A stretch of DNA of 64,000 bases, from NCBI RefSeq assembly GCF_011045215.1, contig NZ_CP049201.1. One strand, given 5' to 3'. A program made the position numbers and the translations under genes. The number at the start of each line of letters is the position of its first letter. Within the stretch, counting starts at the first letter, position 1. The notes under the pieces are model-generated. The model was given only the letters and a program-made list of their open reading frames with translations, ran no database searches and had not been told where the DNA came from. Below are positions 41,093 through 64,000 of this stretch, in pieces. The stretch comes from Escherichia coli. GTDB taxonomy: Bacteria > Pseudomonadota > Gammaproteobacteria > Enterobacterales > Enterobacteriaceae.

Positions 41093-41321
41093 TACGTATC
41101 CTTATACCTGAAATCTTCGCAAGTATGCCTGGCCGCGAGATTATGGCACACTTGTCCGGTTAACTCTCGTCTCATACAGGTAACACAAACGTGAAAATCC
41201 TTGTTGATGAAAAAAACAAAGATTTAATTTATTGATATAAAAGGATTTGTATCAGCGTATGTCCACGCGGTGACCACATTTTCGAGAGGTAGAGTAAGCC
41301 CGCAACATTGCGGGCTTTGTC

Positions 41322-42113
41322 TTATGGTTCGATCGCCGTTTTGAGACGTTGTGTTGCTACATCAAAATAATGATCACTGGTTTCTATACCAATAAATTTG
41401 CGTCCTGCTTTCAGTGCAGCCACACCCGTTGTCCCTGACCCCATAAAAGGATCAAGGACTGTTCCACCACTATTCGCAGTCCTGACCAGCTCTGCCATAA
41501 GTTCTTCTGGCTTTCCGGTCGGGTGCATTTTCTTTGACGGGATAACCGGGAACGTCATGCAGCCGTCGAACGGACCTGAAGGCGATTTATCTAAATGGCC
41601 TTTGCTGCCCCAGACGATGTATTCACACTGATGCCGGAAATACCCCGTATGGGGTGTTCGTGACCCCCTTCCTTTGTTCCACACAATGATTCCACGCCAT
41701 GTAAAACCGCTGGCCTGAAACGCATCGGTTAAAGCTGGTAGTTGTCGCCAGTCAGTAAATACCAGGGCATAACCGCCCGGTCTGACCGCGCGGTGTGCCT
41801 GTGCCATCCATAATTGTGTCCAGTAAGCCCACGAACGGGCGTCCATGTTTTCACCCGCGAACCCATCAAAGCGGTGAAGGTTCCCGCCGTTCAGATATTT
41901 TGCATGGCTGCCCTGGTTGGTGCGTCCGGCCTTGTGTGTCGCACCCGAACTGTAAGGCGGGTCAGTGATTAAAGCATCAATGCTTTCTGGCTCAATCAGC
42001 GGCAATATTTCCAGCGCATTCCCACGACAGAGCGTGGCATTGTCAGTCTGATAAACCTTAGTGTGTTCCGGTGTATGTGCTGGTTGGTGCTGGATTGCGA
42101 TCCCCACGGTCAT
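41322..42113 (-). CDS. Phage-borne beta-class DNA amino-methyltransferase (N6-adenine or N4-cytosine)
   Basis: 263-aa ORF with DPPY (motif IV) near the N-terminus and FMGSGTT (motif I) near the C-terminus; 5' end overlaps the com-like gene. Confidence 0.8.
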   Translation of the reverse strand: MTVGIAIQHQPAHTPEHTKVYQTDNATLCRGNALEILPLIEPESIDALITDPPYSSGATHKAGRTNQGSHAKYLNGGNLHRFDGFAGENMDARSWAYWTQLWMAQAHRAVRPGGYALVFTDWRQLPALTDAFQASGFTWRGIIVWNKGRGSRTPHTGYFRHQCEYIVWGSKGHLDKSPSGPFDGCMTFPVIPSKKMHPTGKPEELMAELVRTANSGGTVLDPFMGSGTTGVAALKAGRKFIGIETSDHYFDVATQRLKTAIEP

Positions 42114-42255
42114 AACTCCTCATGTGTGTGGGGTGCTCGATGGCTCTCGTTATCTGGTTAAGTGTTTTGCAGCGCGGACATTTTATTTCAATGTAGTGAA
42201 ATGAGGCGCGGGCAAGTAGTTTGTTGCAATTTTTGCATCGTACATTTTGCGTCAT
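42058..42255 (-). CDS. Com-like zinc-finger translational activator (phage Mu Com family)
   Basis: RCKNCNKLL...IEIKCPRCK...EHPT matches the recalled Mu Com C4 zinc finger; AGAGG RBS about 8 nt upstream of ATG 42255; 56-nt overlap with methyltransferase start as com overlaps mom in Mu. Confidence 0.75.
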   Translation of the reverse strand: MTQNVRCKNCNKLLARASFHYIEIKCPRCKTLNQITRAIEHPTHMRSYDRGDRNPAPTSTYTGTH

Positions 42256-42302
42256 TTGCGGCACCTCTTGTGTGGTTACTGCTGCCGATATGATAGCAAA
42301 TC

Positions 42303-42337
42303 GATCGTTTTTATCGATCGGATTTATTGCATCGATC
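42303..42337. promoter_or_regulatory. Cluster of three GATC (Dam) sites upstream of the com-like gene
   Basis: Three copies of ATCGATC(G/T) at 42303, 42316 and 42334 within 35 bp, 48-82 bp upstream of the com start. Confidence 0.4.
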
Positions 42338-42362
42338 TGTTATGTCTATTGCTCATGGATGG

Positions 42363-42402
42363 GGATACCAAAAAGAAAACCCGCAGTTTTTACGCTGCGG
42401 GC
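42363..42402 (-). terminator. Rho-independent terminator downstream of the hok-like ORF
   Basis: Minus strand reads CCCGCAG-CGTAAAAA-CTGCGGG followed by TTTTCTTTTT. Confidence 0.55.
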
Positions 42403-61173: not shown

Positions 61174-61218
61174 TTTTTCTCTCCGTTACAGGCGGGCATG
61201 ATGCCCGCCGTGAGTTGA

Positions 61219-62271
61219 TTAGCTGTCGGCGAACTTCAGGCCAGTGACCATCGCGCACTTGCCATAGTCTTCAACGACATAAGCGTCATTGATGGACTGG
61301 TAGGTGGCGATGCGGTTGTATTCCGGTTCGTCTTTCATCAGACGACGCATTGAACCTTTCTGCCAGTAAATTGACAGGTTGTTGAATGAGGTGATCAGCA
61401 TCGTTGAATCCGGGAAGAACGGCGCAAGGAACACGCCCAGCCCGCCAATGGTGCGCGATGACAGAATGAGCTGCCCGGCGAGTAATTCCGCATTAGGATT
61501 CTGGCCGCTGATGCTGTTCAGCACGGGCAGACGCAGCGAGTTAAACAGGTTGCGCCCCATAATCACCACGAGGTCGTCAGCTTCCTTGTGCCATTCATCC
61601 AGCAGGGATGAACGCGCGTCCTGTACCAGTGCATCAGCGTTCGCATACTTACCCGCGTGTGCCACGGTGTTGTCCATGTTGCGGGAGGTCAGCGTCACGT
61701 CATTCATAACGCGTTCGCTGGCGTCGGTTCTGATGTGCTCCAGCCAGCCCACGTTAACGTCCTGAAGCAGCTTGTTGGTGCTGAAGTTGGACTCATCCGC
61801 GTGAGACGTGCCGTTGAAACCGATCATGATGCGATCAAGTGCCACCTGTCGGGCAATCTGTGCGCTGATGCGGGACTGAAAATCAGGGTGTGCCGCCCAG
61901 GCATCAAGCTGCGGATATGAAATAAACGTGTCGTAGTTCACCTGTTCGCACTGGTATTTGCGGTTTTTCAGATCAACCACGTTATTCGGGTTACGGCGTT
62001 TTGTGCCGTCATAACTGGTATTCGTGCGCGCAATCGGCCCGGTGGTATCCAGGAGGATTTTTTCGCCTTTCTGGTCGGTCACGCCGATCACGTTAATTCT
62101 TTTTGTAAATTCGGTGCTTTCCTTTGAGGCGTTTTCAAAACGCTGCTGTACCGAGGGTTCCACGGTAAATCGCGATACCAGTGCGGAAACCGGGATATTG
62201 TTAAGCGACGCCTGCTGCGCCATATAGCAACCCAGCTTGTTGCGGGTAATATCTGACATCACCAGATTCAT
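61219..62271 (-). CDS. Major capsid protein gpN-like
   Basis: 350-aa ORF; matches recalled P2 gpN (FTVEPSVQQ..., FNGTSHADESN...). Confidence 0.9.
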   Translation of the reverse strand: MNLVMSDITRNKLGCYMAQQASLNNIPVSALVSRFTVEPSVQQRFENASKESTEFTKRINVIGVTDQKGEKILLDTTGPIARTNTSYDGTKRRNPNNVVDLKNRKYQCEQVNYDTFISYPQLDAWAAHPDFQSRISAQIARQVALDRIMIGFNGTSHADESNFSTNKLLQDVNVGWLEHIRTDASERVMNDVTLTSRNMDNTVAHAGKYANADALVQDARSSLLDEWHKEADDLVVIMGRNLFNSLRLPVLNSISGQNPNAELLAGQLILSSRTIGGLGVFLAPFFPDSTMLITSFNNLSIYWQKGSMRRLMKDEPEYNRIATYQSINDAYVVEDYGKCAMVTGLKFADS

Positions 62272-62294
62272 AAAAAATTTGCTCCTTTGTCTTA

Positions 62295-63164
62295 TCAGAA
62301 GTCAGCCAGCTGGTCGGAGGCTGCGCCCGTTGCGGTGAACCGGTTCTGCGGATCGCCGTCCTGCGTGCGCAGTTTTTCCTTCAGTGCTGTCAGCTCTGTG
62401 GTCAGTGACGTAATTTTCTGGCGGTCCTGCTGATGGCGGGTTTCCAGCACATTAAAACGGTCGATAATGTCGGCCTGTGACGTTGCGACGCCTTCCACCG
62501 CTTCCTGAATACGGGAAAAACTGGCGTCATCCGCTTTGCGGCCACGGCCAATAATCCCCATTACGCGGTTAAACCACTGGGTGCCTTCTTCCTGGCGTTG
62601 TTCTGCCATTTCGATGATTTCAGACTCGATGGCTTCGGAGATAAGCGGCGCTTCACCCTGGACACTGTTGAACGTCATTACCGCCTGACGTTGCTGTGCC
62701 GTGAATTTCAGGCGCTCAGTGCCCAGGCTTGCCGGGGTGTCGGTCATCGCCAGCCCGACCAGATAGGCGCGCCCGTTAACGGAGAACTGCGGGTGCAGTT
62801 CGATACTGGAATAGATTTTCTTGCCGTCAGCGACAAGCTGCTTCATGCGCTCGGTCGGTTCGATTTCTGCATACAGCGCAGTACGTCCGGCCAGCGGGCC
62901 TTCCGTAATATCTTCCGTACTCAGCGCGGTGACATCGCCCATTGCGCAAAAGTCGCTTGATGGATATGGCGAGAGAATGTGCTCAACGTTCACGCGGGCA
63001 GCGTAAACATCCGGGTTGAAGTTCTCGGCGGCTTCACGCAGATGCACCGGACTGATTTCACGGCCATCAACAGTTGATCCGGAGACAGCCACGCGAAACT
63101 TTTTGCGGGATGTCTTTTTTTCATTAGCCATAGTTTTTGCCCCTCTGACTGGTTCTTCAGTCAT
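62295..63164 (-). CDS. Capsid scaffolding protein gpO-like
   Basis: 289-aa ORF upstream of capsid gene; divergent from P. Confidence 0.85.
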   Translation of the reverse strand: MTEEPVRGAKTMANEKKTSRKKFRVAVSGSTVDGREISPVHLREAAENFNPDVYAARVNVEHILSPYPSSDFCAMGDVTALSTEDITEGPLAGRTALYAEIEPTERMKQLVADGKKIYSSIELHPQFSVNGRAYLVGLAMTDTPASLGTERLKFTAQQRQAVMTFNSVQGEAPLISEAIESEIIEMAEQRQEEGTQWFNRVMGIIGRGRKADDASFSRIQEAVEGVATSQADIIDRFNVLETRHQQDRQKITSLTTELTALKEKLRTQDGDPQNRFTATGAASDQLADF

Positions 63165-63285
63165 GATGGCAAAGCGTAACAGGCTGATACAAAGGGCTTT
63201 TGTTGTAAGAAAACGGCCAGAACAGGGGGTTAAGGAGAACGGTTTCGCGCGCGGGTAATCTTCCTGTAATTACTCAGGGGGAGCA

Positions 63286-64000
63286 ATGATTCAGGACGCT
63301 TTTGTGCGCCAGCGTGCGCGACAACTTTACTGGCAGGGTTATCCGCCCGCAGAAATATCACGTCTGATGGGAATAAACCCGAACACGATTTATGCGTGGA
63401 AAAAACGCGACCAGTGGGATGAAACGCCACCCGTGCAGCGTGTCACGCAGTCCATCGATGCGCGTCTCATCCAGCTTACTGAAAAACAGAATAAAACAGG
63501 CGGTGACTTCAAGGAAATAGACCTGCTGACCCGGCAGCTTAAAAAGCTGCATGATGGCCAGCCGGATGTGACGGCCACAGGAAAGAAAGGCCGGGCGAAA
63601 AAACTCAAAAATCATTTCACGCCGGAACAGATTGCCGCACTGCGGGAAAAAATCATCAGCAGGCTGGAGTGGCATCAGCGGGGCTGGTTTGACTCCCTGA
63701 CCCTTTGCAGGGAAGCCGGGATACGTAACAGGATGATCCTGAAATCCCGACAGATTGGGGCGACCTGGTATTTTGCACAGGAAGCACTGCTGATGGCGCT
63801 GCGTGACGATGTGGCGCAACCTTACCAGCGTAACCAGATTTTTTTGTCTGCGTCGCGTCGTCAGGCGTTCCAGTTTAAAAGCATTATTCAGAAGGCCGCG
63901 GCTGAAGTTGATGTGGAGCTGAAAGGGGGCGATAAAATCATCCTCTCCAACGGCGCAGAGCTGCATTTTCTCGGCACTTCTGCTGCGTCGGCACAGTCCT
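63286..64000 (+). CDS. Terminase large (ATPase) subunit gpP-like, 5' part only (continues beyond window)
   Basis: ATG at 63286, frame open to window end; N-terminal HTH-like region; divergent from O as in P2. Confidence 0.8.
   Translation, partial: MIQDAFVRQRARQLYWQGYPPAEISRLMGINPNTIYAWKKRDQWDETPPVQRVTQSIDARLIQLTEKQNKTGGDFKEIDLLTRQLKKLHDGQPDVTATGKKGRAKKLKNHFTPEQIAALREKIISRLEWHQRGWFDSLTLCREAGIRNRMILKSRQIGATWYFAQEALLMALRDDVAQPYQRNQIFLSASRRQAFQFKSIIQKAAAEVDVELKGGDKIILSNGAELHFLGTSAASAQS

Follow-up and report, generated by a model that had tools for sequence, protein, structure and literature searches.

The last part of the window, i.e., of the 64,000-nucleotide stretch of Escherichia coli DNA analyzed here, is very probably the left ~22.8 kb (41194-64000) of a ~36-kb temperate phage of the P88/PhiSM group, and a whole prophage is the best explanation of the data. 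As judged by genome comparison, the phage belongs to the Peduoviridae and to Xuanwuvirus, the genus of P88, and is not P2 itself. This type of prophage (P2 family, P88/PhiSM type, inserted in pdxB) is common and has already been described. Its cargo includes a cassette that, by alignment, has the regulatory design of Mu mom with a beta-class adenine methyltransferase replacing Mom.

Identity and gene content of the prophage

At the nucleotide level, the segment 42370-64000 is 97% identical to the functional phage P88; for the whole query, identity is 97% to P88 over 93% and 96% to PhiSM over 87% of its length. Each of the 27 virion and lysis proteins of P88 that were tested has a full-length, frameshift-free match, with identities of 92 to 100% except for the variable fiber H (78%). 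The structural part of the element comprises the following features.

43125-44234, minus strand: tail gene D, 369 aa from ATG 44234 (PF05954; full-length 99% match to P88 D)
44392-49967, plus strand: tail operon FI, FII, E/E', T, U, inverted relative to P2
49994-50593, minus strand: gin-type serine DNA invertase (PF00239, E = 1.5e-50; start aligned with Mu gin)
50644-53746: invertible Mu-type G segment, gix arms 50644-50705 and 53685-53746
50875-51618, plus strand: S'v, in the G segment
51621-52154, plus strand: U', in the G segment
52183-52710, minus strand: U/G, in the G segment
52712-54874, minus strand: tail fiber H, P2-type N terminus and Mu S-type variable C terminus (PF12571, PF03406, PF21446)
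54877-63131, minus strand: I, J, W, V, S, R, lysC/lysB, M15 endolysin, holin, X, L, M, N, O (SCU-152 PGAP annotation)
63286-64000, plus strand: terminase large subunit gene P, 5' part, cut by the window end

The 413-aa open reading frame of D overextends the gene and is intact, and the proteins of the I-to-O block match those of P88 full length (97 to 100%). The gix inverted repeat (62 nt, 79% complementary) aligns with Mu gixL and gixR. The G segment, which also contains the Sv end of H, shares 93 to 95% nucleotide identity with Mu and D108 and is collinear with the deposited Mu reference record; together with Gin, it would let the phage switch between two tail-fiber tips.

The sequence-only reading had called the element a P2-like prophage; the P2 family holds, but the element is P88/PhiSM-like (Xuanwuvirus), with a gene order unlike that of P2. 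Escherichia phage P88 (NC_026014, Xuanwuvirus P88) has the same order, including the inverted FI-U operon, gin, the G segment, and hok, and differs in its integrase and att and by gp53 in place of com and the methyltransferase gene. P2 (NC_001895) shares the series Q P O N M L X ... V W J I H G FI FII E T U D, ogr and the ogr-att-int end, whereas its genes from FI-U through D to ogr lie all on one strand, its att site is a different one, and it lacks the invertase, the G segment, hok, com, and the methyltransferase gene.

The window stops in gene P and holds the left two-thirds of the prophage; int, C/cox, A, and attR are known from a proxy, the prophage of E. coli SCU-152, which is 99.7% identical over 24.9 kb without indels. 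That prophage carries P, Q, parMR, A, cox, C, and int, followed by attR and pdxB. Integrase, immunity genes, and a second att site had been expected beyond the window, and the extension past 64 kb via SCU-152 recovers Q, A, cox, C, int, and attR. The pdxB-type junction, int-attR-pdxB, is present in 298 of 5,426 complete E. coli genomes (~5%); among the 5,127 matching genomes without it, the attR-probe homology of the listed examples starts exactly at base 1 of the core.

The attachment site and the interrupted host gene

The host genes from yfcJ to flk are syntenic with K-12 up to flk and are followed by phage genes. The ORF coordinates agree with the earlier statement that synteny ends at the flk start (41092), with the first phage-side stop codon, that of the methyltransferase gene, 230 bp further. 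In K-12, pdxB does adjoin flk, as the sequence-only reading stated, with a spacer of 98 bp (K-12 annotation). The junction is composed as follows.

40097-41092, minus strand: flk, 331-aa ORF with ATG at 41092
41093-41190: host flk-pdxB divergent intergenic region, unchanged, identical to K-12 (alignment)
41191-41213, plus strand: orphaned pdxB 5' stub, GTG and codons 2 to 7; K-12 identity stops after 41213
41214-41295: phage P' arm of att, near-identical to the right flank of the core in Chuche attP
41296-41317, plus strand: G+C-rich hairpin, 9 pairs (6 G-C), terminator-like on this strand

Since the alignment shows no difference from K-12 in the full spacer or in the first 23 bp of pdxB, the comparison of the intergenic region that had been proposed for defining the att core yields AAAATCCTTGTTGATGAAAA (20 bp, 41194-41213, within pdxB codons 2 to 7), inside the interval 41093-41321 to which the junction had been assigned. 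The same core is found at attR of the SCU-152 prophage (38137-38156 of L001) and in attP of Escherichia phage Chuche (PP925824), which consists of the left side of attR, the core, and the right side of attL and is thus an exact recombinant of the two prophage junctions. The published attP of PhiSM is ATCCTTGTTGATGAAAA (PMC6456863). Tandem arm-type motifs, TGTCCAC / GTGACCAC, are located at 41260-41277 in the P' arm, and the opposite arm in the SCU-152 prophage has a comparable pair, GTGTCCACGCAGTGTCCAC, next to the int stop codon (L001 ~37926-37944); these motifs presumably bind Int. The hairpin, confirmed as previously noted, begins 4 nt beyond the methyltransferase stop (minus strand), is conserved in the Chuche attP flank, and may halt transcription across att, which would start at the pdxB promoter in a lysogen and come from int when the phage genome is circular.

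Because the crossover falls inside codons 2 to 7, the gene split from its promoter and start codon, and now dependent on prophage sequence, is pdxB and not flk. pdxB is a vitamin-B6 gene. Upstream of the flk ATG, at least 101 bp of host DNA are untouched (120 bp counting the duplicated core), as follows from the identity of the intergenic region to K-12. At the other end of the SCU-152 prophage, int and attR precede a leader, AAGGAG-N7-TTG, that comes from the phage and is joined in frame to pdxB. In the mechanism that we propose, a tyrosine integrase would insert the phage at the 20-bp core, so that the original promoter, ribosome-binding site, and GTG start of pdxB stay behind beside flk at attL; at the far junction, outside the window, the phage would provide AAGGAG-N7-TTG and seven codons. 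Since this leader is in frame, PdxB would still be produced, transcribed probably from a phage-borne promoter or by C-int read-through. Citrobacter phage PhiSM (Shae_phiSM, OR565851; Magaziner et al. 2019, PMC6456863), of the same genus, shares both the att site in pdxB codons 2 to 7 and the AAGGAG/TTG leader restoring the gene. Its insertion site and the phage-supplied repair of pdxB have been published, including the experimental demonstration that PhiSM integrates at this site and that its lysogens grow on minimal medium (PMC6456863).

Cargo between ogr and the attachment site

The att-proximal end of the prophage contains the following features.

41322-42113, minus strand: orphan beta-class N6-adenine-type DNA methyltransferase, 263 aa (PF01555, N6_N4, E = 1.6e-33)
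42058-42255, minus strand: com, Mu Com-type zinc-ribbon translational activator (PF10122, E = 9.5e-12)
42102-42148, minus strand: predicted mRNA control element, Com-site hairpin, then stem CCCCAC/GUGGGG (RNA fold)
42290-42349, minus strand: com promoter/operator (Mu Pmom alignment and promoter scan)
42377-42404, minus strand: intrinsic terminator downstream of hok, at which the variable cargo slot has its left edge
42491-42777, minus strand: hok/sok type I toxin-antitoxin (hok PF01848; sok Rfam RF01794)
42822-43082, minus strand: ogr/delta-type late transcription activator (PF04606, E = 5e-14)

In P2, the P arm and the attP core come immediately after the ogr terminator, ~100 bp from ogr, in line with the position given in the sequence-only reading; the window therefore has 1.6 kb of extra DNA separating ogr from att. 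Homology to P88 and PhiSM begins at ~42370-42418, at the edge of the cargo slot. The hok gene (42491-42631, minus strand) scores 29.9 bits against a PF01848 cutoff of 22 and is 98% identical to P88 gp52; its 5' leader/sok region (42618-42777) matches RF01794 with 48.4 bits (E = 3.4e-8), under the gathering score of 59. The hok/sok pair would keep the prophage stable following segregation or eliminate the cells from which it is lost. Both hok/sok and the com-methyltransferase cassette are, by comparison with related phages, phage-borne cargo, since the virion genome of Chuche contains the same cargo in the order hok-com-MTase-attP-int, with the cassette 97% identical. Chuche differs in that its high-identity matches span only ~43% of the query, which makes it a mosaic relative. 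In place of com and the methyltransferase gene, the slot of PhiSM is occupied by two genes, one for a zinc-ribbon protein and one of 297 aa; one of this pair carries the annotation "TagO."

The methyltransferase is of the beta class according to its motif order, DPPY ... FMGSGTT, and is recognized by PADLOC as MTase_II (E = 3.9e-64); PADLOC detected no restriction gene beside it. Its best PDB matches are DpnA and CcrM (~1e-20). These nearest solved relatives are sequence-specific enzymes. The true start is likely the GTG at 42107, because the variant L083 has no ATG and starts at the aligned GTG.

Several features relate the cassette to the Mu com-mom operon (Hattman 1999 review, as cited in PMC3299994). 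(i) Com and its Mu counterpart share 60% identity over 42 residues, all four Cys being conserved, and com overlaps the start of its effector gene, here by ~50 nt. (ii) In the predicted fold, the stem CCCCAC/GUGGGG buries the GUG start of the methyltransferase, and the Mu fold is analogous. This element is conserved in sequence across Mu and three variants of the cassette. The z-scores of the folds are modest, at -2.1 (window) and -1.6 (Mu), and an A.A mismatch distinguishes the Com-site hairpin from that of Mu. Com would bind this small hairpin and open the stem that hides the GUG. (iii) Three GATC sites (42334-37, 42316-19, and 42303-06) are in the register of the OxyR/Dam operator of Mu mom. 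In Mu, OxyR binds this operator only when the GATCs are not Dam methylated. The three-GATC operator appears to be homologous to that of Mu, and OxyR would bind it; it overlaps a predicted extended -10 promoter (TCGATA-16-TGcTATCAT), the -10 of which is conserved in the cassette variants, including one without GATCs.

The two systems differ in that (i) the effector is a Rossmann-fold beta-class protein (PF01555), whereas that of Mu is Mom (PF25680); (ii) the Mu segment with the C-activator site, T6 spacer, and -10 is deleted and replaced by the operator-overlapped promoter, so that transcriptional control cannot equal that of Mu; and (iii) the carrier is P2-like, whereas Mu is a transposable phage. 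The com promoter lacks a candidate late-promoter motif that occurs upstream of both FI and P. The cassette is a variant rather than a new kind, since such pairs are known in Mu-like prophages: Hin1523, Nme1821, and Hia5 are Com-linked nonspecific adenine methyltransferases (Drozdz et al. 2012, PMC3299994) with a com homologue directly upstream, at the phage end, and a proposed Mom-like antirestriction role. Those enzymes are of the Dam-related D12 alpha class, in contrast to the beta-class enzyme of the window, and an OxyR/GATC operator is not mentioned in that article ("OxyR" occurs 0 times).

Alternative explanations

In SCU-152, the sole clean near-identical reference, the DUF3800 gene and gene A, for the replication endonuclease, are annotated as frameshifted, so that the element there could be replication defective, unless these are assembly errors; moreover, the right third of the element lies outside the window. 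A defective remnant with complete structural genes and dead replication or excision would agree with this, but it is unlikely given the full-length structural and lysis genes relative to inducible P88, the intact int and att junctions of SCU-152, the isolation of P88, PhiSM, and Chuche as phage genomes, the description of PhiSM and P88 as active temperate phages, and the frequency with which single frameshifts in long-read assemblies are errors. The sequence-only reading had placed the insertion immediately upstream of flk, in its promoter region, and made flk transcription reliant on phage DNA. Although flk is the nearest intact host gene and phage DNA starts 122 bp upstream of its ATG, we consider this very improbable and abandon both claims: the crossover is within the pdxB coding sequence, the spacer is unchanged, the plus-strand hairpin lies between the phage genes and the junction, and the nearest phage gene, encoding the methyltransferase, is co-oriented with flk and has that hairpin just beyond its end. 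That the methyltransferase/com/hok block is host DNA or a separate island adjoining the prophage is hardly conceivable. The block sits at the extreme end of the element, and com and the methyltransferase gene are absent from P88 and PhiSM, but it is inside the att core duplication, where K-12 is empty, and Chuche has D-ogr-hok-com-MTase-attP-int contiguous. Its earlier assignment as cargo between the junction and ogr is thereby upheld.

The cassette might also serve, not in lytic antirestriction, but as a phase-variable epigenetic switch of the agn43 type expressed in the lysogen, in which Dam/OxyR competition at the three GATCs would generate ON and OFF lineages, with an altered host methylome in ON cells. 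At agn43, OxyR acts directly at the promoter. The E. coli agn43 (flu) switch has three GATCs 19 and 13 bp apart (18 and 13 bp in the window) in similar ATCGATCG-type sequence; as there, the operator overlaps a promoter, here a predicted extended -10 promoter independent of an activator, at its -35 and spacer, and the deletion of the C-dependent part of Mu and the absence of a late-activator motif point the same way. The agn43 sites differ in that they are just 3' of the transcript start and control an autotransporter, whereas the OxyR sites of the window are predicted. We regard such a switch as improbable: the translational lock is retained, the Com-linked methyltransferases that have been tested were all silent in lysogens (PMC3299994), and one natural variant without GATCs keeps the remaining cassette, so that the switch is dispensable.

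Proposed role of the cassette

The Com-linked non-Mom methyltransferases are nonspecific as well as silent in lysogens (PMC3299994). By analogy with Mom and with the nonspecific Com-linked enzymes of FluMu and Pnm1, from which its substrate range is extrapolated, the enzyme of the window would most likely methylate adenines of phage DNA during lytic growth, and its expression would be timed such that it is silenced in the lysogen because promiscuous methylation is harmful. The one less ordinary part of this prophage is the cargo cassette, a DNA methyltransferase under phage-Mu-style controls, and the adenine methylation would shield the progeny from restriction.

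Identity and gene order of the prophage

The ORF map and family scans placed flk at 40097..41092 (minus strand), followed by a 229-bp gap and then by phage genes, and domain scans agreed with the order methyltransferase, com, hok-like gene, and ogr that the sequence-only reading had proposed near the junction. The features past flk are the following.

41322..42113, minus strand, MTase (N6_N4 DNA methylase, 263 amino acids)
42058..42255, minus strand, com
42377-42404, hok terminator, one edge of a variable cargo slot whose other edge is the att arm
42491..42631, minus strand, hok
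42822..43082, minus strand, ogr, followed by tail gene D on the same strand

Nucleotide comparison of positions 41093-64000 revealed 97% identity with Escherichia phage P88 over 93% of the length and 96% identity with Citrobacter phage PhiSM over 87%; both phages belong to the family Peduoviridae, genus Xuanwuvirus. Each of the 27 virion and lysis proteins of P88 that were tested maps at full length in the window, with identities of 92 to 100% apart from tail fibre H, which is variable (78%), and the terminase gene P is cut by the window end after 715 bp. The element, previously described as P2-like, is indeed a prophage, but its type is that of the P88/PhiSM genus and not strictly that of P2.

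In P2, the genes FI-FII-E-T-U-D-ogr are collinear on one strand and attP directly follows ogr, whereas in the window FI-FII-E-T-U is inverted, lying on the strand opposite to D, ogr, and the O-to-G block, and the strict P2 order is not kept. Strands and gene order are those of the P88 annotation: D and ogr diverge from FI-U, and the stretch from U to G contains gin and an invertible fibre segment. In the window, this stretch holds the gin invertase and an additional fibre-tip/chaperone pair in opposed orientation. Relative to P2, the inversion of FI-U (44392-49967; compared also with 52183-63131) leaves D and ogr (43125-44234) as a separate leftward unit, and it is a genus feature common to P88. 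The 157-bp spacer between D and FI must hold divergent late promoters. The P2 late-activator dyad TGT-N12-ACA was uninformative (8 matches versus 15 expected), and its single match in the phage regulatory area falls within com. Identical copies of TTGTTGT-N14-AAC are found upstream of FI (44291-44314) and upstream of P (63200-63223); these are the only exact matches in the phage part of the window, and the com promoter has none. This ad hoc motif, which differs from the P2 dyad, is a tentative candidate for the late-activator (Ogr) site, the evidence being weak with two copies.

The best matches in the E. coli collection were strains KSC9 (99.8%) and SCU-152 (99.7%), and the right third of the prophage was studied by proxy. 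KSC9 was discarded as a reference since its record ends inside the prophage, with error-ridden duplicated ends and many frameshifts. This "complete" chromosome begins and ends within the prophage, with flk, MTase, D, and FI duplicated and frameshifted, which looks like an untrimmed circularization overlap. Over 24.9 kb, 68 substitutions separate SCU-152 from the window, and there are no indels. Past the window end, it contains, in order, P, Q, a frameshifted DUF3800 gene, parM/parR, replication gene A (annotated as frameshifted), early genes, cox, C, and int, followed by attR and pdxB-usg-truA. By this proxy, the integrase, the C/cox immunity switch, the replication genes, and the second att copy would lie beyond the window, where they had been anticipated. 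The plasmid-type parM/parR pair and the DUF3800 gene occupy a Q-proximal slot (27593-32823 of locus L001 from SCU-152).

The host part of the window, at 1413-13573, contains evgA, emrK, emrY, and dsdA, followed by a sucrose locus, cscR-cscA-cscK-cscB (6861-11932), which adjoins tRNA-Arg(CCT) (12374-12448) and a gene of the formate/nitrite transporter family (12524-13573). We take the tRNA gene to be argW and its neighbor to be yfdC; in this position, K-12 presumably has dsdC/dsdX and the CPS-53 prophage.

The prophage interrupts pdxB and supplies a new translation start

Identity with K-12 extends from flk across the intergenic DNA and the pdxB start, GTG AAA ATC CTT GTT GAT GAA AA, and is lost after position 41213 of the window. 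In K-12, pdxB adjoins flk as stated in the sequence-only reading, the two genes being divergent and 98 bp apart. Comparison with K-12, a check of the kind proposed there, placed the att core ATCCTTGTTGATGAAAA in the 5'-terminal part of pdxB (41194-41213), where the alignment breaks; it matches the published PhiSM attP. The duplicated core, AAAATCCTTGTTGATGAAAA, is present at 41194-41213 in the window and in two copies 36,044 bp apart in SCU-152; in an alignment with K-12 and the window, the far end of the SCU-152 prophage becomes identical to K-12 at AAAATCC. The attP of the isolated phage Chuche consists exactly of the int-side arm, the core, and the arm found at 41214-41321 of the window. 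Since it is an exact recombinant of both arms and the core, all DNA to the right of 41213 is phage DNA. The G+C content shows no step at the host-phage junction, so that composition gives no boundary mark. Tandem TGTCCAC-like motifs are present on both arms, at 41260-41277 in the window and beside the int stop codon in SCU-152, and are presumed to be arm sites for Int. The hairpin noted earlier at 41296-41317 exists and looks like a terminator for the plus strand.

A dependence of flk on prophage DNA had been suggested but finds no support: the 101 bp upstream of its ATG (120 bp counting the duplicated core) are unchanged. The affected host gene is pdxB, a gene of vitamin B6 biosynthesis that is essential on minimal medium. 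The pdxB promoter, ribosome-binding site, and GTG start are left at attL and directed into the prophage. At attR of SCU-152, the sequence AAGGAG is followed by 7 bases and TTG TCA GAG ACT GAA AAA GGG TTA, in frame with AAA ATC CTT... of pdxB. This phage-supplied Shine-Dalgarno sequence and TTG, in frame with the truncated gene, were observed at attR of SCU-152 and in the attP of Chuche and lie outside the window. The prophage interrupts pdxB and restores it by providing a translation start of its own, which corrects the earlier reading of the locus. For PhiSM, attP ATCCTTGTTGATGAAAA, the repair of pdxB by the TTG and Shine-Dalgarno sequence, and the prototrophy of MG1655(PhiSM) were reported by Magaziner et al. 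2019 (PMC6456863), and because of this documentation our result is a confirmation and not a discovery. A scan of the interval from int to the TTG-pdxB fusion revealed no canonical terminator and no strong sigma-70 promoter, nor did it pick up the promoter predicted in the same study (PMC6456863). Transcription of pdxB would proceed from a phage promoter or by read-through from C-int. In SCU-152 (locus L001), PGAP starts pdxB at an internal ATG (38158-39270; 370 amino acids), without the phage-supplied TTG leader, and shortens gene D to 266 amino acids (4024-4824), where the D ORF is intact with 369 amino acids from a conserved ATG; both calls in these lysogens are annotation artefacts.

With a probe spanning int-attR-pdxB and a coverage of at least 80%, the junction was found in 298 of 5,426 complete E. 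coli genomes, and the yfcJ-flk-left-half arrangement was found in 287 genomes. Among the matches listed, homology to the probe in genomes without the full junction starts at the first base of the core. The prophage is common and its site is fixed, and in about 5% of E. coli genomes pdxB runs from phage-derived signals, with flk unaffected.

Variable modules: the cargo slot and the tail fibre segment

According to the P2 record, the P arm and the attP core lie within ~100 bp of ogr, as had been stated, whereas in the window 1.6 kb of cargo separates ogr from att; because of this difference, the 1.6 kb is considered extra DNA. The slot contains com and MTase in this window, in Chuche, and in 170 of the 5,426 genomes, and the assignment of the methyltransferase/com/hok region to phage cargo holds, given that Chuche carries com and MTase and that the DNA right of 41213 is phage DNA. 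In PhiSM (165-1395 of locus L140) and strain 95NR1 (4459-5689 of L056), the slot instead contains a zinc ribbon gene and a gene for 297 amino acids, one of the two genes being annotated "TagO," and in P88 it contains gp53. O145 prophages at the same site (RM8988-C1, 3869-4939 of L006) differ by a 356-amino-acid PIN domain gene added between ogr and D. The Hok/Gef peptide matches PF01848 with 29.9 bits (cutoff, 22), and the Rfam sok family RF01794 matches over the hok leader with 48.4 bits (E value, 3.4e-8), under the gathering score of 59.

The tail fibre region contains a serine invertase gene, gin (PF00239), two opposed Sv-U gene sets, and inverted gix sites, whose arms are as follows.

50644-50705, gix arm, 62-nt inverted repeat
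53685-53746, gix arm, 62-nt inverted repeat

These arms align with Mu gixL and gixR. The DNA of the G segment is 93 to 95% identical to that of Mu and D108 and is collinear with the deposited Mu reference record; the G+C content of the invertible segment (0.45 to 0.485) is below that of the flanking P2-type genes. These data point to a recent exchange of this host range module between transposable and P2-family phages. Together, gin and the G segment span 49994-53746, a stretch to which these identity and G+C values apply.

A com-methyltransferase cassette with predicted Mu-type control elements

Com is a PF10122 zinc ribbon protein; it shares 60% identity with Mu Com and retains the four Cys residues, and its gene overlaps MTase by 56 nt. 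Upstream of com, three GATC sites align in register with the Mu mom promoter region, being 18 and 13 bp apart in both. The Mu mom GATCs form a Dam-sensitive OxyR operator (Hattman 1999, a review cited in PMC3299994). E. coli agn43 has a similar arrangement, with a spacing of 19/13 compared to 18/13 in the window. By this likeness, the three GATCs upstream of com are a candidate OxyR/Dam operator of the Mu type. The predicted mRNA fold at the effector start also resembles that of Mu, with a small Com-site hairpin followed by a stem (CCCCAC/GUGGGG in the window, CCCAC/GUGGG in Mu) that is predicted to bury a GUG located 8 nt past AGGAG. The predicted RNA elements are kept in three cassette variants, and the z-score of the fold in the window is modest (-2.1). 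A divergent variant from a viral contig (L012/L083) retains the GATCs, the -10 element, both RNA elements, and the GUG; it lacks the ATG of 42113, so the GTG at 42107 is the likely MTase start.

The cassette differs from that of Mu in two ways. (i) The Mu effector is Mom (PF25680; E value, 2e-75), whereas the protein in the window is a beta-class DPPY...FxGxG methyltransferase (PF01555) outside the Mom family. (ii) The Mu promoter contains a C activator site, a T6 spacer, and a TAAGAT -10 element, whereas this segment is deleted in the window. Its place is taken by a predicted extended -10 promoter, TCGATA-16-TGcTATCAT (42317-42290), which GATC-II and GATC-III overlap, and this extended -10 is kept in all three cassette variants, one of which has no GATCs. 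In the latter (viral contigs L080-L082), ~230 nt upstream of com, all three GATCs were lost through a ~29-bp deletion and point changes; its Com is 85% identical, and a TGtTATCAT -10 element and both RNA hairpins are kept.

When viral contigs were scanned for the GATC triple, 48 loci were retrieved, approximately 38 of which have com directly downstream. Viral contigs L041 and L054 show the pattern GATCGTTTTTATCATATCGATCGTCACCACCGATCGA without com downstream; there, the triple possibly serves some other phage gene as a further operator of the Dam/OxyR type. A Com alignment search showed that com genes overlap those of three unrelated enzyme classes, namely, Mom, PF01555, and Dam-type PF02086 methyltransferases. 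Genes for non-Mom adenine methyltransferases following com have been described in the Mu-like prophages FluMu, Pnm1, and Hia5 and in phage B3 (Drozdz et al. 2012, PMC3299994). Hin1523, Nme1821, and Hia5 are nonspecific enzymes, two of which were undetectable in native lysogens (PMC3299994). Since Com-linked non-Mom methyltransferases are already described, the cassette is a further variant of a known design; it is a modest new variant that differs by its enzyme class, its P2-family carrier, and the retention of the Mu operator. A literature search for an OxyR/GATC-controlled com-methyltransferase found nothing specific, but its coverage was incomplete and novelty is unproven.

No restriction endonuclease gene is present beside MTase, which has only com upstream and the 108-bp att arm downstream, and MTase is an orphan methyltransferase. 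Two candidates for its identity were rejected: M.EcoGII is a different enzyme of 349 amino acids, the paper on which never mentions com, and M.EcoGIX is a single-strand methyltransferase of plasmid pESBL. The published O145 and O111 methylomes were unusable here; 95NR1 carries the zinc ribbon/"TagO" cargo and not MTase.

Proposed function and significance of the cassette

By analogy with Mom, a tightly gated MTase would shield phage DNA from restriction, and this is the mechanism that we prefer. A phase-variable function in the lysogen also deserves consideration as an alternative, since the cassette has lost the portion of the Mu promoter that depends on the activator. The most far-reaching form of this alternative, which we consider improbable, is that the cassette is a self-contained switch of three layers that passed from Mu to a P2-family phage, was freed of the C activator, and could exert heritable ON/OFF control of MTase. 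The layers would be a Dam/OxyR operator lying directly on a promoter that needs no activator, translation that depends on Com, and a sequestered GUG start, and the target would be a broad-specificity adenine methyltransferase present in ~3% of complete E. coli genomes.

Both the prophage and the logic of its integration had been described before. The cassette would offer a small natural model in which to study gating by Dam/OxyR and translational activation of the Com type, and it may yield a new adenine methyltransferase, possibly of relaxed specificity. For phage biology, it shows that the control module of Mu mom moves as one piece and that DNA-modifying enzymes of a third, unrelated class can be placed under it in a non-Mu phage. 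If the three-layer switch were true, lysogens would differ in their methylomes, and restriction-proof phage progeny would arise as a form of bet hedging.
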